In this document: positions 1,865-62,444 of the stretch, piece after piece
Position numbering within the stretch: position 1 is the first letter of the stretch
Layout: each line of letters begins with the position of its first letter
NCBI GenBank assembly: GCA_036495095.1
Contig: DASXNK010000194.1
Coordinates: forward strand, 14,498 to 78,497
Source: Candidatus Dormiibacterota bacterium
Lineage (GTDB): Bacteria > Chloroflexota > Dormibacteria > Aeolococcales > Aeolococcaceae
DNA: 64,000 nucleotides
Direction of reading: 5' to 3'
The notes under the pieces: generated by a model
Seen by the model: only the letters and a program-made list of their open reading frames with translations
The model's database searches: none
Told to the model about the DNA's origin: nothing
Translations under genes and position numbers: made by a program

Positions 1865-2704
1865 ATGCCGAGATACATCCTGGACCAGACCTGGGAGCGC
1901 GAGGCCGAGCGCCTCGACGCGCTGGAGCGCTGCGGCGATCCGCTCACCGTCGACCACCTGCGCCGCACCGGCGTCGGCACCGGCTGGGACTGCCTCGAGG
2001 TGGGTGCGGGCCGGGGCTCGATCGCCCGCTGGCTCGCCGACCGGGTCGGCGACCGGGGCACGGTGCTGGCGGTGGATCTCGACACCACCCTGCTCGAGGA
2101 GGAGCGGCGCCCCAACCTCGAGGTGCGCCGCCTCGACATCCTCAGCGACCCGCTCCCCGCCGCGGCCTTCGACCTGGTCCACGCCCGCCACGTCATCGGC
2201 CATCTTCCGGACCGCGCCCGCGCGCTGCACCGCCTCGCCGCCAGCCTGCGCCCGGGCGGGTGGTTGCTCGTCGAGGACTTCGACTTCCGCTGGGCCGAGC
2301 TCGGCGACTGGCCCTGCGACCCGGTCGACGCCGGCCCCGTGTTCGGCCGGGTCTGGTCGGCGACCCTGGAGGTGATGCGCACCGGCACCTACGACGGCGG
2401 CTGGTCCTGGCGGGCGGCGGCCGGCCTGCGCGCGGTGGGGCTCGCCGAGGTGGCGGGCGAGGCGAGGGCGCCGATCGGCGACCGCGCCTTCACCGAGATG
2501 ATGCACCTCACGATGCTGCGGTTCCGCGAGCCGGTGATCGCCGGCGGCATCCCCGAGGCCGACATCGACCGCTGCCTCGCCATGCTCGCCGACCCTGGCA
2601 GCTGCGTCACCGCGGCGCCGCTGGTGTCGGTCTGGGGGCGGCGGCCGCCCCCGGACCGAACACCTCAGCGCGCCGCCCGGAGCGCGGCGACGAACCACTC
2701 GTAG
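1865..2704 (+). CDS. class I SAM-dependent methyltransferase
   Basis: Motif I 'LEVGAGRGSIARWLADRVG..GTVLAVDLD' and 'LRPGGWLLVEDF'. ATG 1865 with GAGG 7 nt upstream. The longer track ORF from 1739 is probably leader. Confidence 0.65.
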   Translation: MPRYILDQTWEREAERLDALERCGDPLTVDHLRRTGVGTGWDCLEVGAGRGSIARWLADRVGDRGTVLAVDLDTTLLEEERRPNLEVRRLDILSDPLPAAAFDLVHARHVIGHLPDRARALHRLAASLRPGGWLLVEDFDFRWAELGDWPCDPVDAGPVFGRVWSATLEVMRTGTYDGGWSWRAAAGLRAVGLAEVAGEARAPIGDRAFTEMMHLTMLRFREPVIAGGIPEADIDRCLAMLADPGSCVTAAPLVSVWGRRPPPDRTPQRAARSAATNHS

Positions 2705-3591
2705 GCGGGCGTCAGCGAGGGCCCCTGCGGCCAGCCGTTGATGACGCCGATCAGGTTCCAGTAGCGCTCCACCCGCTGGTCGCTGAAGGTCTCGAGCATC
2801 CAGACCAGCTCGGCGCGATACGCGGCGTCGTCGCTCCGGTGGGCGGCGGTCGCGAACAGCCCGACCAGCTCGTCGGCGATCGCCGCCGCCCCCTCCGACT
2901 CCGGCGCGACCCCGGCGGCGATCGCCGCCTGGCCACGCTCCACCACCGCCCGCCCGGCCTCCGCGGTGGGCTTGTCGTCGTGGCTGATGCCGGAGCCGGC
3001 CCGCAGCCGGGCCCCCTCGGTGACCATCCGCCGCACCCGGGCACGGAAGTCGGCGTCGCCGACCATTCCGGCGAGCTCGACCCAGGCGTCGATCTGGGCG
3101 TCGGACGGGTCCTCCGGCAGCGTGGGCAGGCCGCTGCGCATCACCGTGGCGAAGGGGTCGTCGGGATGGTCGGCGAAGACGGAGGCGATGAAGTCCTCCA
3201 TGATCCGTCCGGCCTCATCGGCGGACGTGCGGGCGAACGCGGTCATGCGATGTACCTCCTCGGGCCGGGAGTCGCGGCGGGCGATGGCCCGCAGCAGCGT
3301 CCGGCGCAGGGTGAGCTGACGGATGTGCAGGTCGATGGCGTCGGCGTGGGCGCTGGCCACCTCGGCGAGCCCGGCCCGGCGGTCGAGGACCTGGCGGATC
3401 GTCGCCAGGTCGAACCCCAGGTCGCGGAGGGTGCGGACCAGCTCGAGCCGGGCCAGCCCGGCCTGGTCGTAGCGGCGATAGCCGGACGGGCTGCGCTCGG
3501 CCTCGGGGGCGAGCCCGATGTCCGAGTAGTAGCGGACGGTCTTCACCGGGAGCCCGGTGAGCCGCGCCATCTGGCCGATCGAGATGTCCAT
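2665..3591 (-). CDS. MerR family transcriptional regulator with ~200 aa C-terminal effector-binding domain (TipA-like architecture)
   Basis: N-terminal HTH 'IGQMARLTGLPVKTVRYYSDIGL...SGYRRYDQAGLARLELVRTLRDLGFDL' is canonical MerR, followed by a coiled-coil and C-terminal domain. Confidence 0.8.
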   Translation of the reverse strand: MDISIGQMARLTGLPVKTVRYYSDIGLAPEAERSPSGYRRYDQAGLARLELVRTLRDLGFDLATIRQVLDRRAGLAEVASAHADAIDLHIRQLTLRRTLLRAIARRDSRPEEVHRMTAFARTSADEAGRIMEDFIASVFADHPDDPFATVMRSGLPTLPEDPSDAQIDAWVELAGMVGDADFRARVRRMVTEGARLRAGSGISHDDKPTAEAGRAVVERGQAAIAAGVAPESEGAAAIADELVGLFATAAHRSDDAAYRAELVWMLETFSDQRVERYWNLIGVINGWPQGPSLTPAYEWFVAALRAAR

Positions 3592-3691: not shown

Positions 3692-3723
3692 ATACTCATG
3701 AGAATGCATATTCTCATGAGTAT
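3692..3723. promoter_or_regulatory. perfect inverted repeat ATACTCATGAGAAT-GCAT-ATTCTCATGAGTAT (14 bp arms, 4 bp spacer); candidate MerR operator in the divergent promoter
   Basis: Read directly from the sequence, ~100 nt upstream of the MerR start (3591), in an intergenic region. Unusually AT-rich for this genome. Confidence 0.6.
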
Positions 3724-5494: not shown

Positions 5495-5953
5495 TCAGCG
5501 GGGCAGCTGCTCGCGCCAGACGTTGCCGAGGACCCGCACCGGCCCGGCCAGCCCCTCGCGACAGCAGGCCAGGACCTCGGGGCCGATGGGCGGGTACATC
5601 TCCAGGGTGGCGAGATCCTCCACCGGCTCCCAGGCGACGCCGACGAGGCGGCCGTCCATGCCCGCGCGGAGGCTGCCGCCGCGGATGCTCCCGGCGTAGA
5701 CCAGGTTCACGAGATGGCGGCCGAGCGGCGCCACCGACTCGCAGAGCAGCAGCAGGCGGCCGACGTCGACCTCGTAGCCGGTCTCCTCACGAAGCTCGCG
5801 CTCGGCGGCGGCGGCCAGGGTCTCCCCCACCTCGACGCCACCGCCGGGCAGCAGCCGGTAGCGGCGGCCGTTCTTCAGGTGCTGGACCAGCAGGACCCGA
5901 TCGCCGTCCTGGATGAGCACCGCCACGCGGATCCGGATCTCGCGCGCGTGCAT
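5495..5953 (-). CDS. NUDIX hydrolase (MutT-like)
   Basis: Nudix box 'LPGGGVEVGETLAAAAERELREETG'. ATG at 5953-5951 chosen over the upstream track start (6079) because the extra 42 aa are low-complexity. Confidence 0.7.
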   Translation of the reverse strand: MHAREIRIRVAVLIQDGDRVLLVQHLKNGRRYRLLPGGGVEVGETLAAAAERELREETGYEVDVGRLLLLCESVAPLGRHLVNLVYAGSIRGGSLRAGMDGRLVGVAWEPVEDLATLEMYPPIGPEVLACCREGLAGPVRVLGNVWREQLPR

Positions 5954-6001
5954 CGGCGGATCATCCCACGCCCACCGCCGGTCGGGTTTCTCCCACACCT
6001 G

Positions 6002-6030
6002 TTGACTCCGAACGCCTGTTCGTGTACGCT
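6002..6030 (+). promoter_or_regulatory. sigma-A-type promoter of the LysM gene: -35 TTGACT (6002-6007), 17 nt spacer, -10 TACGCT (6025-6030)
   Basis: Hexamers and spacing read directly from the sequence. LexA box 1 lies inside the spacer. Confidence 0.5.
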
Positions 6031-6052
6031 CGCCATGCGAACAGGCGTTCGT
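6009..6052. promoter_or_regulatory. two LexA (SOS) boxes: CGAACGCCTGTTCG (6009-6022) and CGAACAGGCGTTCG (6039-6052); the whole 44 bp forms a larger inverted repeat
   Basis: Both match the Gram-positive/actinobacterial SOS box consensus (T)CGAAC-N4-GTTCG(A) perfectly in the core. Located between divergent NUDIX and LysM genes. Confidence 0.7.
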
Positions 6053-6090
6053 GAGCAGAGACGACCCCCCATCGACCACCCACCCACGAC

Positions 6091-22376: not shown

Positions 22377-23450
22377 CTACCCCCCGGTGGCCGGCGCTGC
22401 CGCGGACCCGTTTGCGGACGGCGTCGCCGGCGTCGCCGGGACGTCGGCGGCGGGGGCCGGGGCGGGGAGCAGGCTGGCCCGGACCCGCTGGGCGATCTCG
22501 CCGAGCAGGTCGGGGTTCTGGCGCAGGAAGTCGCGGACGTTCTCGCGCCCCTGGCCGAGGCGCATGTCGCCGTAGCTGAACCAGGCGCCGCTCTTCTCGA
22601 CGATGCGGCTCTCCAGGGCGACGTCGAGGACGCTGCCCGCGTAGGAGATGCCCTCGTCGTAGAGGATGTCGAACTCGGCCGCGCGGAAGGGCGGGGCCAC
22701 CTTGTTCTTCACCACCTTGACCTTGACCCGGCTGCCGACCACGTCGAGGCCCTGCTTGATGGAGTCGATCTTGCGGATGTCCATGCGCACCGAGGCGTAG
22801 AACTTCAGCGCCCGGCCGCCGGTGGTGACCTCGGGGTTCCCGAACATCACCCCGACCTTCTCGCGCAGCTGGTTGATGAAGATCACGCTGGCGTTGGAGC
22901 GGCTGATGGCAGCGGTGAGCTTGCGCATCGCCTGGGACATCAGCCGGGCCTGGAGGCCGACGTGAGTGTCGCCCATCTCGCCGTCGATCTCCGCCTTGGG
23001 GACCAGCGCGGCGACGGAGTCGATGACGATCACGTCGACCGCACCGCTGCGCACCAGCACCTCGACGATCTCCAGGGCCTGCTCCCCGGTGTCGGGCTGG
23101 GAGATGAGCAGCTCCTCGGTGCGCACCCCGATGCGCGCGGCGTACTGGGGGTCGAGGGCGTGCTCGGCGTCGATGAAGGCGGCCACGCCCCCCCGCTTCT
23201 GGGCCTCGGCGATGATGTGGAGGGTGAGCGTGGTCTTGCCCGACGACTCCGGCCCGTAGATCTCGACCACCCGGCCGCGGGGCACGCCGCCGACGCCGAG
23301 GGCGATGTCGAGGGTCAGCGCCCCGGTGGGGATGGCGTCGACGTTGCGCTGCGCGTCGGCTGCCCCCAGCCGCATGATCGCGCCCTTTCCGTAGGAGCGC
23401 TCGATCTGGCCCAGCGCTGTGCTCAGCGCGCGTTCTCGCTCGGTGGACAC
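22377..23450 (-). CDS. recA: recombinase RecA
   Basis: '[26 protein letters not shown]', Walker A 'GPESSGKTT'. GTG 23450 preceded by AAGGAG. The 438-aa track ORF overextends upstream. Confidence 0.9.
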
Positions 23451-23604
23451 CGGCTCGGTCTCCTTGGGGGCGGCGCCACGCCGCCCGCTGCCTGCGGTGC
23501 TCCGGAGTGTCCCACTTTCCAGTGTGTTTGTCAATGCTTCAACTCCGGGGGTGGTCGGACCGAACATATGTATGGTAGCCGGACCCGCAGGGGGGCTGCA
23601 GGGA

Positions 23605-26731: not shown

Positions 26732-27151
26732 ATGTCCACCGGTCCCCCACGCCCCGGAGCTCGCTCCGGATCGCCCTTCGAGGAGGCCTTCGGCTTCCGC
26801 CGCGCGGTGGCCGTCGACGGCCGGGTGGTGGTGTCCGGGACGGCGCCGATCGAGCCGGACGGCGGCTGCGCCGAGGGCGCCGGGGCCCAGGCGCGGCGGT
26901 GCCTGGCGATCATCGCCGAAGCGCTGCGGGAGCTCGGGGCGGCACCCGCCGACGTGGTCCGCACCCGGATGTACATCGTCGACCCCGAGGACGCCGAGGC
27001 GGTCGGCCGCGCCCATCTCGACGCCTTCGGCGAGGCCCGGCCGGCGGCGACGATGGTGGTGGTTGCCGGCCTCCTCGACCCCCGATGGCGGGTGGAGATC
27101 GAGGCCGAGGCCGAGGTCAGCCGGCCCGGAGCCGCCGCGCCACCAGGCTGA
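26732..27151 (+). CDS. RidA/YjgF/RutC family protein
   Basis: 'FGFRRAVAVDGRVVVSGT...RMYIVDPEDAEAVGRAHLDAFGEARPAATMVVVAGLLDPRWRVEIEAEA' matches the RidA fold pattern. Confidence 0.7.
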   Translation: MSTGPPRPGARSGSPFEEAFGFRRAVAVDGRVVVSGTAPIEPDGGCAEGAGAQARRCLAIIAEALRELGAAPADVVRTRMYIVDPEDAEAVGRAHLDAFGEARPAATMVVVAGLLDPRWRVEIEAEAEVSRPGAAAPPG

Positions 27152-27740
27152 GGTCGTCGACCAGGCGGGCCATCTCGAGGTGGCGCTGGCCGGGGTCGTC
27201 GACCCGCAGGACCGACGAGGGGTGCACGGTGACGTACGCCTCCCGGCCCCCCTCCAGGTCGAGGCACTCGCCGCGCTGGCGGGTCAGCCGCACCCCCGGC
27301 CCGAGCAGCGCCCGCACCGCGGTGGCTCCCATGGCGACGACGATGCGGGGGTTCACCGCCTCCAGCTCGGCGTCGAGCCACCGATGGCAGGCGTTGATCT
27401 CGCTGACCAGCGGGGTCTGGTGGATCCGCCGTGACCCTCGCCGCACCCACCTGAAGTGCTTCACCGCGTTGGTCACGTAGGCGGCGCCCCGGTCGATGCC
27501 CGCCTCGGCGAGCGCCCGGTCGAGGATCTGCCCGGCGGGACCGACGAAGGGACGGCCCTCCCGGTCCTCGCGATCGCCGGGCTGCTCGCCGACCAGCATG
27601 AGCGGGGCGGGCACCGGCCCCTCCCCGAACACCGTCCGGGTGGCGTGCTGGTGGAGCGAGCAGGCCGTGCACCGCGCCGCCCCGGCGCGCAGCGCCTCGA
27701 ACGCGGCGACCGGCGCCGCCACGACCTCGCCCCGTGCCAA
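27117..27740 (-). CDS. udgX: family 4 uracil-DNA glycosylase paralog with UdgX-type motifs
   Basis: 'CTAC' Fe-S ligands, 'GEGP', R-loop 'HFRWVRRGSRRIHQTP' (RRIH), motif B 'HPSSVLR'. TTG start with GGGGGTGAGG RBS. Confidence 0.65.
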   Translation of the reverse strand: MARGEVVAAPVAAFEALRAGAARCTACSLHQHATRTVFGEGPVPAPLMLVGEQPGDREDREGRPFVGPAGQILDRALAEAGIDRGAAYVTNAVKHFRWVRRGSRRIHQTPLVSEINACHRWLDAELEAVNPRIVVAMGATAVRALLGPGVRLTRQRGECLDLEGGREAYVTVHPSSVLRVDDPGQRHLEMARLVDDLSLVARRLRAG

Positions 27741-27888
27741 GCCTCACCCCCGTGCTTCATTTTCACAATACGATATATCCACTGCATCATAACTAGAGGT
27801 AACGCAGCGGTGGGGGTTCGAAGGGGAGTGTGGCCTCCCCCCCGGAGAAACCGGCCCGCCGCGAAACCCGTCACTGATATCCGAAGTG

Positions 27889-28221
27889 TCAGGTTATCCC
27901 CGACTTGTCCCCACTGTCCCCAGCCAGCTCGCGGAGCCGGTCGGACCAGAAACGGTGGCGGCCGTCGAGCCGGCTCTCCTCGGCGACGAGGATGACCAGG
28001 TCGTTGTCGAGCTCGGCGCGGGCGGCGTCGGCGCCCTTCCCGAGCCTGCTGGCCAGCTCGCTGATCAGCGCGCGCTTGAACTCGAGGAGCTCCGCGTACA
28101 CCGCCGTCCAGTGGGCGGCGTCCCGGGGGTCGGTGGACCGGAGGTCCCGGTCCTCGCCCGGGAGCCGGCGCTCCGGGTCCACCGCCCGCATGGCGGCGCG
28201 TCGGAGGTCGTCGTCGTCCAT
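27889..28221 (-). CDS. hypothetical acidic protein
   Basis: 110 aa, Asp/Arg-rich, predicted helical. No recognisable family. Confidence 0.35.
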   Translation of the reverse strand: MDDDDLRRAAMRAVDPERRLPGEDRDLRSTDPRDAAHWTAVYAELLEFKRALISELASRLGKGADAARAELDNDLVILVAEESRLDGRHRFWSDRLRELAGDSGDKSGIT

Positions 28222-32956: not shown

Positions 32957-34631
32957 TCACCGGGAGGATCATCGGCCGGCGACGGGTGCGGCGGTAGAGG
33001 AAGCGGGCCAGTCCCTCGTGGATCGCCGACTGCCACACCGACCACTCGGAGTCGGGGCGCAGCTTCGACACCAGCTGGAGGATGTGGGCGCGCGCCTCGT
33101 CGAAGAGCGACTCGGTCGAGGACTCGTCGACGAAGCCGCGTGACACCAGGTCGGGGCCGCCCACCACCATCCCGGTGGAGCGCTCGACGGTGAGCACCAC
33201 GATGAGCACGCCGTCCTGGGCGAGGGCGCGGCGGTCGCGCAGCACCACGTCGCCGGCCTCCTCGATCTCCAGACCGTCGACGTACACGTAGCCCGCGGGG
33301 GCGCGCAGGGTGGTGCGGCGGATTCCCGCGGCGTCGATCTCGATGATGGTGCCGTTGTCGATCGGCAGCACCCGCTCGGCGGGGATGCCCACCGCCCGGG
33401 CGAGCTCGGAGTGGATCGCGAGGTGGCGGTACTCGCCGTGCACCGGCACGAAGTAGCGCGGCCGCACCAGGGTCATCAGCAGCTTGAGCTCCTCGCGGCT
33501 GGCGTGGCCCGAGGCGTGCACCCGGTGACGTGACGAGTGGAAGACGCGGCTGCCCTGCCGGTAGAGGTTGTTGATGGTGCGATGCACCAGCTCCTCGTTG
33601 CCGGGGATGGGGTTGGCGCTGATGATGACGGTGTCGCCGCGCTGCAGCTGGACGATCGGGTGCTCGCCGGCGGCGATCCGGGTGAGCGCCGACAGCGGCT
33701 CGCCCTGGGCGCCGGTGCAGACGATCAGCACCCGGTCGGCACTCAGCCCGTCGAGCTGGCGGGGCCAGAGCAGCGACCCCGGCGCCACCTTGAGGAACCC
33801 CAGCTCCTGCGCGGTCGCGACGTTGTTGAGCATCGACCGTCCCACCACGAGCGAGCGGCGGTTGTGCTCCTCGGCGCAGTCGAAGGCCTGCTGCAGCCGC
33901 GAGATGTTGGAGGCGAAGGTGGCCATCAGGATGCGCCCGGGCGAGGTCGCGAAGATCGGCGACAGCCCCTCCCCCACCTGGCGCTCGCTCGGCGTTGTGC
34001 CCTCGGACTCGGCGTTGGTGCTGTCGCTGAGCAGCAGCAGCACGCCCTCGTCGCCGATCCTGGCGAGCCGGGCGAGGTCGGGCGGCTCGCCGTTGATCGG
34101 GGTGTGGTCGAGCTTGAAGTCGCCACTGTGCACGATGGTGCCGAGCGCGGTGCGGATCGCCAGCGCGCAGGCGTCGGGGATGCTGTGGGTGGTGTGGATC
34201 CACTCCACCGCGATGCCGCCCAGCTCGACGGTGTCGCCGGCGCGCACCACCTGGGTCTCGGTGGAGTCGAGCAGCCCGTGCTCCTTCAGCTTGGAGCGCA
34301 GGAACCCGAGGGTGAGGCTGGTGCCGTAGACCGGCACCGGCAGCCGCGGCAGGATGTACGGAAGCCCGCCGATGTGGTCCTCGTGCCCATGGGTGAGCAC
34401 GATGCCGCGGACCCGCTGGGCGCGCTCGAGCAGCCAGGAGATGTCGGGGATCACCAGGTCGATGCCGAGCATCTCCTGCTCCGGGAACATCAGCCCGCCG
34501 TCCACGACCACGATGTCGTCGTTGCACTCGATCGCCATCAGGTTGCGGCCGATCTCGCCGAGGCCGCCCAGGGGCACGAGCGACAGCCGCCCCCCTCCCA
34601 CCGCCGGTGGGGCGTGCAGGACGTCGGTCAT
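32943..34631 (-). CDS. rnj: ribonuclease J
   Basis: 'LVPLGGLGEIGRNLMAIE...VLTHGHEDHIGGLPYIL' metallo-beta-lactamase/beta-CASP; 562 aa. Confidence 0.9.
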   Translation of the reverse strand: MTDVLHAPPAVGGGRLSLVPLGGLGEIGRNLMAIECNDDIVVVDGGLMFPEQEMLGIDLVIPDISWLLERAQRVRGIVLTHGHEDHIGGLPYILPRLPVPVYGTSLTLGFLRSKLKEHGLLDSTETQVVRAGDTVELGGIAVEWIHTTHSIPDACALAIRTALGTIVHSGDFKLDHTPINGEPPDLARLARIGDEGVLLLLSDSTNAESEGTTPSERQVGEGLSPIFATSPGRILMATFASNISRLQQAFDCAEEHNRRSLVVGRSMLNNVATAQELGFLKVAPGSLLWPRQLDGLSADRVLIVCTGAQGEPLSALTRIAAGEHPIVQLQRGDTVIISANPIPGNEELVHRTINNLYRQGSRVFHSSRHRVHASGHASREELKLLMTLVRPRYFVPVHGEYRHLAIHSELARAVGIPAERVLPIDNGTIIEIDAAGIRRTTLRAPAGYVYVDGLEIEEAGDVVLRDRRALAQDGVLIVVLTVERSTGMVVGGPDLVSRGFVDESSTESLFDEARAHILQLVSKLRPDSEWSVWQSAIHEGLARFLYRRTRRRPMILPVITEV

Positions 34632-35341
34632 CAGAAGAGGGTGAGCTGCTCGTCGGCGGCGCGGACCGCGACGGCGCGCGCGGCCTCCTCCGCCAGCTCA
34701 CGCTGCCGGCGCTCCCGCTCCGCCCGGGCCTCGTCGAGGTAGCCGCGCACCTTCTGCATGTCCTCCTCCAGGGTGCGCAGCAGCGAGGCGTTGTAGAGCG
34801 CGGCCGCGGGATGGAGGAGGGGCACGTAGAGACGGTCGCCGCGGCGCACCCGCTGTCCGTGGATGCGGCTGATGCCGGGCATGCCCGGGAGCAGACGTCC
34901 CACGGCGTGACGGCCCAGCAGCAGGATGACGTCGGGGCGGATCAGTGCCACCTGGTCGTCGAGGAAGTGCGCGCACGAGCTCACCTCGGCGGGCTCGGGG
35001 TCGCGGTTGCCCGGCGGGCGGCACTTCAGGACGTTGCCGATGTAGATGTCCTGGCGGTCCAGCCCGATCGACTGGAGCAGCCGGGTGAGCAGCTGGCCGG
35101 CGGCGCCGACGAAGGGCCGGCCGGTGCGGTCCTCCTTCTCGCCCGGAGCCTCGCCGACGGCCATGATCCGCGCCGTCACCGGCCCGTCGCCGGGCACCGC
35201 GCGGGTGCGGGTGGCGTGAAGCGGGCAGGCGGTGCAGGACTCGATGGAGCGGTGGAGCGCGAGCAGCGCCTCGGCGCCGGCGGCGCCGGCCCCGGGCACG
35301 GCCGGGACGGTGCTGCCGAAGGGGATGTGCCCGAGGCTCAC
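34631..35341 (-). CDS. udg: uracil-DNA glycosylase, family 4 (canonical)
   Basis: 'CTACPLH', 'GEAPGEKEDRTGRPFVGAAG', 'NVLKCRPP', 'HPAA'. GTG start overlaps the dapA stop. Confidence 0.8.
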   Translation of the reverse strand: MSLGHIPFGSTVPAVPGAGAAGAEALLALHRSIESCTACPLHATRTRAVPGDGPVTARIMAVGEAPGEKEDRTGRPFVGAAGQLLTRLLQSIGLDRQDIYIGNVLKCRPPGNRDPEPAEVSSCAHFLDDQVALIRPDVILLLGRHAVGRLLPGMPGISRIHGQRVRRGDRLYVPLLHPAAALYNASLLRTLEEDMQKVRGYLDEARAERERRQRELAEEAARAVAVRAADEQLTLF

Positions 35342-62419: not shown

Positions 62420-62444
62420 GTTCGGCGCGCCGAACAGACGTTCC
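62420..62444. promoter_or_regulatory. LexA box CGAACAGACGTTCC (62431-62444) overlapping a 16-bp perfect palindrome GTTCGGCGCGCCGAAC (62420-62435), upstream of yebC-ruvCAB and adjacent to a TAGAAT -10-like hexamer
   Basis: Perfect GAAC-N4-GTTC core. On the coding strand TAGAAT immediately precedes the box. Confidence 0.6.

Follow-up and report, generated by a model that had tools for sequence, protein, structure and literature searches.

Genes and features of the udgX locus

The window, i.e. the whole 64-kb stretch of DNA that was analysed, belongs to a MAG of Candidatus Dormibacteraeota (Dormiibacterota) and contains on its minus strand two homologous uracil-DNA glycosylase (UDG) genes, one of the UdgX type and one of the canonical family-4 type. 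The features of the locus are the following:

26732..27151, plus strand: RidA/L-PSP family gene (Pfam PF01042; also a gene call on contig L081), convergent to udgX, its 3' end overlapping the 3' end of udgX by 35 nt
27117..27740, minus strand: udgX, coding for 207 aa, with a TTG start and a TGA stop (from the ORF list, the profile TIGR03914 and the structures of M. smegmatis UdgX, MsmUdgX)
27761..27812, minus strand: non-coding AT-rich block, conserved, located 21-72 nt before the start codon of udgX
27889..28221, minus strand: orf110, the unannotated gene immediately preceding udgX, with an acidic product of 110 aa (GC3 0.946)
34631..35341, minus strand: canonical family-4 UDG paralogue of 236 aa, flanked by dapA and the RNase J gene (GEAPG, HPAA and, at the KCRPP position, a Cys)

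The overall gene order is rpsO-pnp-dapB-asd ... dapA-UDG4-RNase J-DEAD helicase-FtsK-orf214-orf110-udgX, where the ends of the family-4 gene (UDG4) overlap those of its dapA and RNase J neighbours. Beyond udgX lies the convergent RidA gene, followed by YajQ, a MiaB/RimO-type methylthiotransferase, PgsA, CinA and RecA.

A sequence-only reading of this DNA had placed an ORF at 27117-27740 and had quoted from its translation the strings GEGP, HFRWVRRGSRRIHQTP and HPSSVLR. The ORF and all three strings are present, the latter as residues 39-42, 95-110 and 173-179 of the product, respectively. The GC content of udgX by codon position (0.80/0.53/0.957, GC3 last) is typical of real genes in this window of 74% GC, and the shadow ORFs overlapping udgX have a profile unlike that of real genes. 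The TTG start is supported by the sister contig L082, where the orthologue (90% identical) has an ATG at exactly the same position. The same 207-aa gene has been called on the JGI contig L081. The DNA itself is represented (99.96% identical) by the JGI contig Ga0376677_0000141, and the protein is identical to HEY2705843.1, which GenBank places on a 100,692-bp contig of a Candidatus Dormibacteraeota MAG and names "UdgX family uracil-DNA binding protein".

Assignment to the UdgX family

The UdgX family profile NCBIfam TIGR03914 (curated cutoff 189.95) scores the window protein at 278.7 bits, whereas the paralogue, at 131 bits, stays below the cutoff. With the family-4 model TIGR00758 (cutoff 125.3) the paralogue reaches 203.4 bits and the window protein 129.8 bits, the latter a marginal pass that lies 149 bits below its own TIGR03914 score. 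The sequence-only reading had proposed a UdgX-type protein at 27117-27740 and a canonical family-4 UDG (with GEAPG and HPAA) some 7 kb away at 34631-35341, and the profile scores bear out both assignments. Its wording of a "second family-4 UDG paralog" holds for the homology between the two products (38-40% identity, E 4e-30; genes 6.9 kb apart) but not for an ordinary family-4 status, the window protein being of the UdgX type.

A sequence search of the PDB gave MsmUdgX as the best match (E 1.5e-54, 53% identity). In fact, MsmUdgX and its point mutants account for all of the 24 best distinct sequences (E from about 1e-54 to 2e-52, residues 12-201 aligned), and the canonical family-4 UDGs come next, with E values of 5e-34 and weaker. 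We conclude with high confidence that 27117..27740 encodes a stand-alone UdgX-family uracil-DNA glycosylase of this Candidatus Dormibacteraeota (Dormiibacterota) MAG, which by homology would follow an MsmUdgX-like mechanism. Family membership and the conservation of every functionally tested residue (described below) are established here.

The occurrence of UdgX outside Mycobacterium had been put forward as notable, an expectation that does not survive comparison with the existing record. The 2015 discovery paper already listed homologues in Streptomyces, Rhodococcus, Nocardia and Gordonia, as well as in Xanthomonas, Thiobacillus, Rhizobium and Bradyrhizobium (PMC4787834), and UdgX activity has been demonstrated for R. 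imtechensis and B. diazoefficiens (PMC10359453). Our genome scan (tblastn-confirmed, E <= 1e-3, one genome per GTDB species) identified at least 528 relatives of the window protein. The best 80 of these at least 528 relatives are spread over about ten phyla and include Actinomycetota, Acidobacteriota, Chloroflexota, Dormibacterota, Alpha- and Gammaproteobacteria, and further Myxococcota, Binatia and Eremiobacterota. With HEY2705843.1 so labelled in GenBank, the window protein is nothing out of the ordinary: it has been annotated before, and its family is known and widespread.

Motifs and catalytic residues

UdgX is defined by motif A of the form GEQPG, in which Q53 replaces the Ala or Gly of family 4; motif B has the form HPS(S/A)(L/V)(L/V)R and contains the catalytic His and a DNA-binding Arg; and the co-occurrence of Q53, R107 and H109 in more than 98% of UdgX proteins provides a signature of the family (PMC10359453). 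In MsmUdgX, H109 is the crosslinking nucleophile, E52 its dyad partner and R184 a DNA-binding residue (PMC4787834, PMC10359453, PMC10776899). The roles of E52 and Q53 have been described (PMC10359453), the acidic pair D56/D59 anchors the loop arginine R107 (PMC10776899), and one Fe-S Cys of family 4 is replaced in UdgX by His (PMC4787834). The corresponding features of the window gene are:

27576..27590, minus strand: motif A GEQPG, residues 51-55, with E52 (catalytic-dyad partner) and Q53 (UdgX-diagnostic), from alignments
27411..27461, minus strand: K94-P110 segment with the R-loop (KHFRWVRRGSRRIHQTP), its RRIH in register with KRRIH of MsmUdgX
27420-27422, minus strand: codon of H107, aligned with the crosslinking nucleophile H109 of MsmUdgX
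27204..27224, minus strand: motif B HPSSVLR, residues 173-179, from alignments (H173 = Msm H178, R179 = Msm R184)

Residue numbering of the two proteins coincides up to residue 100. The alignment shows conservation in the window protein of E52, Q53, D56 and D59, of F65, N91 and K94 in the uracil pocket, and further of R105 (= R107), I106, H107 (= H109), H173 (= H178) and R179 (= R184). The predicted Fe-S ligands C24, C27, H95 and C118 (= Msm C120) are likewise kept. Motif A is nearly invariant: of 82 sequences compared (the best 80 of the at least 528 relatives together with the query and MsmUdgX), 81 have GEQPG and the remaining one has GEQLG.

The sequence-only reading had offered GEGP, RRIH and HPSSVLR as UdgX hallmarks, and they fared differently. 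HPSSVLR fits the definition of motif B. On the other hand, GEGP is no hallmark; its counterpart in the alignment is GAGG for MsmUdgX and GDGP for the canonical paralogue. Judged by the alignments, the true motif A is G51-E52-Q53-P54-G55, which that reading had left out. As a check it had named alignment with MsmUdgX, with an RRIH outside the R-loop position counting against its proposal, and the result favours it. In this alignment the RRIH of the window protein falls column-for-column on the MsmUdgX R-loop (S103-R104-R105-I106-H107 on K105-R106-R107-I108-H109), between the identical anchors NAVKHF and TP..E..AC. Since the alignment is ungapped on both sides of the loop and the identity to the solved structures amounts to 53%, a loop His of differing geometry appears unlikely.

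Variation of the R-loop, selection and alternative readings

The K94-P110 segment exceeds its counterpart in the family-4 paralogue by a net 7 inserted residues (KHF plus the insertion vs K-CRPPG-NRDP). It is 17 residues long in 73 of the same 82 sequences, and in 6 of them it has the 19 residues of the mycobacterial form; the window protein, with a segment 2 residues shorter than that of MsmUdgX, thus has the form commoner among relatives. An xRR[I/L]H-type loop is present in all of the best 80 relatives. Unlike MsmUdgX, the window protein has Ser (S103) for Lys at the first position of KRRIH, and among the more than 80 sequences compared this SRRIH is confined to the window and its 90%-identical L082 sister. 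The first position is otherwise Lys (79/82), or else Arg or Thr, and the more distant members of the lineage have GKRR[I/L]H. We found no mutational data on K105 in PMC4787834, PMC10359453 or PMC10776899. The natural SRRIH variant is a minor point of possible interest to UdgX specialists.

The dN/dS of udgX against the sister contigs is 0.37-0.45, about 5 times that of the neighbouring housekeeping genes (0.07-0.08), which points to a gene under relaxed constraint relative to its neighbours on which purifying selection nevertheless persists. None of the substitutions between the window and the sister contigs affects a catalytic residue.

The Ser restricted to this pair of sequences and the elevated dN/dS could be taken as signs of an altered UdgX, in which loop anchoring or DNA contact is weakened, so that crosslinking would be slow or part-hydrolytic and the enzyme leaky and capable of turnover. 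A precedent of a kind is provided by MsmUdgX, from which AP-DNA escapes when the attack by H109 is delayed (PMC10359453). We nonetheless consider such an alteration distinctly unlikely, as the loop residues named in the family signature are R107 and H109 rather than K105 (PMC10359453), both of them are conserved, and D56 and D59, the anchors of R107, are kept as well.

Still less probable is a conventional turnover family-4 UDG, arisen as a plain duplicate of the 34631-35341 gene and carrying the RRIH loop incidentally. The bare pass of the TIGR00758 cutoff, the fold common to the canonical paralogue and the 40% identity to it would all fit such a duplicate. Against it stand the higher TIGR03914 score (by 149 bits), a motif A with Q53 instead of Ala or Gly, the replacement of the third Fe-S cysteine by His as in UdgX, and a 7-residue loop insertion that has the Arg and His of the signature in exact register with MsmUdgX, given that Q53, R107 and H109 occur together in over 98% of UdgX proteins (PMC10359453). 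A decaying or unexpressed remnant, to which the TTG start and the nonsynonymous rate above that of neighbouring genes might point, has a next to negligible probability in view of the intact full-length frame (GC3 0.957), a dN/dS below 1 at two divergence levels, the retention of all catalytic residues in four lineage relatives and the conserved promoter-like block upstream.

Proposed mechanism

For the preferred reading, a UdgX with the chemistry of MsmUdgX, the following course of reaction can be proposed. The uracil would be flipped into a pocket of the family-4 type, where F65 would stack on the base, N91 would form bidentate hydrogen bonds with it, and H173 together with the main chain of E52 would contact the uracil O2. 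After cleavage of the N-glycosidic bond by UdgX, C1' would be attacked by the imidazole of H107 (located on the inserted R-loop) instead of water. H107 would be activated by E52, and the loop would be held in place by salt bridges between R105 and D56/D59. R179 would contact the DNA backbone, and a [4Fe-4S] cluster would be held by C24, C27, H95 and C118. UdgX would in this way become irreversibly crosslinked to the DNA at the abasic site, and each molecule would therefore act a single time. We infer this crosslinking chemistry from the characterised orthologue, MsmUdgX. Ordinary uracil repair with turnover is presumably carried out by the canonical family-4 UDG encoded 6.9 kb away.

The AT-rich block upstream of udgX

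The 40-mer at 27756-27795 has a GC content of 0.30, the lowest in the 64-kb window. Between the window and L082 the AT-rich block (27761-27812) is identical at 50 of 52 positions, as compared with 50-57% in the flanking intergenic sequence (30/53 in the GC-rich middle of the spacer and 10/20 in the leader before the start codon); for the codon third positions of the flanking genes the identity is 86-91%. L087 has the block as well, and L088 has part of it; AGTTATGAT does not vary among four related contigs. The block is absent where the gap between orf110 and udgX is only 24-25 nt (L084/L085, L090). It is probably the udgX promoter, with a -35-like TTATGA, a 16-nt spacer and a -10 element TATTGT (TATTAT in L087). 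This minus-strand assignment is based on conservation, since a strict sigma-70 scan gave its sole match on the plus strand (27762-27790, pointing away from udgX), the minus strand staying below the thresholds. The sequence-only reading had spoken of an unusual AT-rich promoter island; the island does exist and is conserved, but in appearance it is an ordinary promoter.

Other candidate elements were sought in the same region. The PafBC/RecA-NDp promoter has the consensus TGTCRGTG-N8-TANNNT. With up to 2 mismatches allowed, this pattern has no match in 27741-27900, and upstream of UdgX it occurs in just 6 of 81 related loci (the 81 including the window's own). A search for a LexA/SOS box of the Cheo type (CGAAC-N4-GTTCG, up to 2 mismatches) upstream of udgX was also negative. 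A structured RNA in the AT-rich island was rejected, with no Rfam match and an unremarkable fold of 27735-27895 (z = -1.87). Anywhere in the window, neither an Rfam match at gathering score nor a tRNA or tmRNA was found.

orf110, a recurrent upstream gene

The acidic product of orf110 (pI 4.9) matches no Pfam or NCBIfam model, and a collection of 5.8 billion proteins contains just 16 clusters homologous to it. GenBank has a 100% identical protein from a "Candidatus Dormibacteraeota bacterium" MAG. The AlphaFold model of the orf110 product is a confidently predicted helical hairpin (pLDDT 86), with which Foldseek found nothing in the PDB at E <= 0.001 (generic helical hairpins only, the best at E 0.25).

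The window and five other distinct related contigs, namely L082, L084 (with a protein identical to that of L085), L087, L088 and L090, have orf110 immediately before udgX, in the same orientation and with a gap ranging from 24 to about 200 nt. In L056, which belongs to a distant Dormibacterota MAG, an orf110-like gene (39% identity, E 1e-12) is followed by a PAS histidine kinase gene and then by UdgX. Two further contexts, L083 and L089, contain orf110 without udgX. A functionally linked two-gene module of orf110 and udgX in this Dormibacterota lineage is conceivable, though we rate it as unlikely. As a partner of UdgX, the orf110 product could act as an inhibitor or chaperone limiting toxic crosslinking, or as an adaptor for crosslink removal. 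The adjacency may equally well reflect a gene order simply inherited within one lineage. If true, the module would bear on the cellular role of UdgX. As a recurrent small upstream gene encoding a candidate partner, orf110 is of minor interest for UdgX specialists.

Gene neighbourhood in other lineages

The order UDG4...FtsK-orf110-udgX is retained within the window's own lineage. ORF clustering of the loci of the 80 relatives revealed no partner gene conserved among them and no neighbours in common with the window udgX, and in none of these 80 loci is a family-4 UDG found within 6 kb of UdgX; the proximity of UDG4 and UdgX is specific to the window's lineage. The neighbours of UdgX in other lineages are scattered: among the 80 loci, DUF72 is found in 11, an ATP-dependent DNA ligase in 6 and a polymerase of the Pol III alpha subunit type (possibly DnaE2-like) in 5, and in about 5 UdgX is immediately preceded by a PAS histidine kinase. 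A link to a dedicated radical-SAM partner exists for some UdgX-domain proteins. The sole radical-SAM gene near the window udgX encodes a methylthiotransferase of the MiaB/RimO type (UPF0004, Radical_SAM and TRAM domains) and is part of a conserved housekeeping gene order.

Comparison with known systems

The significance of the locus beyond correct annotation is small. It provides one Dormibacterota MAG with both a turnover family-4 UDG and, by analogy with MsmUdgX, a single-use crosslinking UdgX, in keeping with the scattered occurrence of UdgX already known among bacteria. The window locus alone makes the physiological role of UdgX no more testable.

The closest known system is MsmUdgX (MSMEG_0265; PDB 6AIL, 6AJO, 6IO9, 8IIE and others), with 53% identity over the whole length. 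Both are stand-alone proteins of about 207 aa, with the RRIH R-loop and its His (the nucleophile in MsmUdgX), the D56/D59 pair for anchoring the loop Arg and the Cys-Cys-His-Cys pattern of Fe-S ligands (predicted ones in the window protein) in common. Unlike MsmUdgX, the window protein is known from sequence alone, and its host is a Dormibacterota MAG with a canonical family-4 UDG nearby.

The canonical family-4 UDGs (T. thermophilus TTHA1149, PDB 1UI0, and the window paralogue) have in common with the window protein the alpha/beta UDG fold family, the N-terminal CxxC, the PFVG.AG block, N91/K94 and the motif B histidine, at 38-40% identity. They are characterised by GE(A/G)PG, a short loop after the N..K(C) segment and the lack of an R-loop, an Fe-S cluster bound by four Cys with a Cys at the H95 position, a water nucleophile, and turnover. 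The window protein differs from them in motif A, in the R-loop, at H95 and, by analogy with MsmUdgX, in the nucleophile and in turnover.

Among the relatives from the genome scan some are long UdgX-type ORFs (450-650 aa) in which GEQPG is located towards the C-terminus; these could represent either fusions or ORF-calling artefacts. The TIGR03914 domain is common to them and to the window protein, which differs from them in being stand-alone. A more distant similarity (PDB 9qhs, E 9e-9) connects the window protein with the N-terminal UDG-like domain of family A DNA polymerases of the phage SPO1 type, and this similarity accounts for the legacy UdgX names "phage SPO1 DNA polymerase-related protein" and "DNA polymerase"; indeed, the JGI annotation of the window protein still has a polymerase-type name of this kind. 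In contrast to the SPO1-type polymerases, to which its match is much weaker, the window UdgX has no polymerase domain and is found in a non-phage context.

Gene ends around udgX and a conserved element 3' of orf110

The 3' end of udgX overlaps that of a convergent RidA-family gene by 35 nt (27117-27151), and the same 35-nt overlap is present in the sister contig L082. On the other side of udgX lies orf110, the directly upstream 110-aa gene, with a conserved element at its end:

27889-28221, minus strand, orf110, member of a tiny uncharacterised family
27866-27895, minus strand, conserved short block immediately 3' of the orf110 stop codon

The orf110 family comprises 16 clusters, shares the conserved motif LPGE..D...DA.HW..VY.EL..KR and is probably confined to Dormibacterota; structure prediction suggests a helical hairpin for its product. 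The block, CCTGACAC-N7-TATCAGTGAC(GGGTT), is kept in all eight related contigs, regardless of whether it is followed directly by udgX, by the AT-rich block (the probable udgX promoter) or by a gene resembling orf214, the gene upstream of orf110. It could fold into a hairpin (AACCUG.CACU / loop / AGUG.CGGGUU) with constant stems and a variable loop, and may represent a 3'-end element of orf110.

Setting of the canonical family-4 glycosylase and of recA

The canonical family-4 UDG gene (34631-35341, minus strand) is wedged between dapA and the RNase J gene, and the overlapping ends of these genes suggest that it is co-transcribed with housekeeping genes. This arrangement recurs in L082. The recA gene is located about 4 kb downstream of udgX within the conserved gene order ftsK...pgsA-cinA-recA:

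22377-23440, minus strand, recA

Its upstream region (23505-23575) is another low-GC spot of the window, where the sole SOS-like box is a degenerate one, CATACATATGTTCG.

Candidate regulatory sites elsewhere in the window

The pattern GAAC-N4-GTTC occurs three times in the window versus 0.24 occurrences expected by chance, and a perfect inverted repeat was also found:

6009-6051 and 62432-62443, SOS-like box sites (CGAAC-N4-GTTCG / GAAC-N4-GTTC pattern)
3692-3723, perfect 14-bp inverted repeat, ATACTCATGAGAAT-GCAT-ATTCTCATGAGTAT

The first site holds two perfect CGAAC-N4-GTTCG boxes, spaced by 15 nt and mutually reverse complementary, within the 5' portion of a minus-strand ORF (5495-6079) with a putative Nudix-box-like motif, as judged by eye. 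These boxes are candidate LexA/SOS operators or, alternatively, the arms of a single long hairpin. The inverted repeat lies in the spot that ranks second-lowest in GC across the window and precedes, by ∼100 nt, a minus-strand gene (2665-3591). The deduced N-terminus of that gene's product (MDISIGQMARLTGLPVKTVRYYSDIGL...) resembles a MerR-type helix-turn-helix, and the repeat is probably the operator of this putative regulator.

UdgX neighbourhoods in other phyla

Among the loci of 80 UdgX relatives, a DUF72 protein is encoded within 3 kb of UdgX in 11 (including L003, L015, L027, L028, L032 and L047). An ATP-dependent DNA ligase is found nearby in six (L005, L011, L026, L049 and L061 among them), and a polymerase of the Pol III alpha subunit type, which may be DnaE2-like, in five (L036 and others). 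Each of these three kinds of neighbour sometimes adjoins UdgX directly. Together these neighbours hint, if weakly, at a DNA-repair neighbourhood. Upstream of the UdgX anchor, at a distance of ∼160 nt, four alphaproteobacterial loci (L035, L051, L077 and L080) share a near-identical 22-mer, CGTCGGTG(C/G)(A/C)(A/G)AT(C/G)ATGAG(G/A)AT. This conservation may reflect mere relatedness or a coding region; the 22-mer fits, with two mismatches, a RecA-NDp-like pattern (TGTCRGTG-N8-TANNNT).
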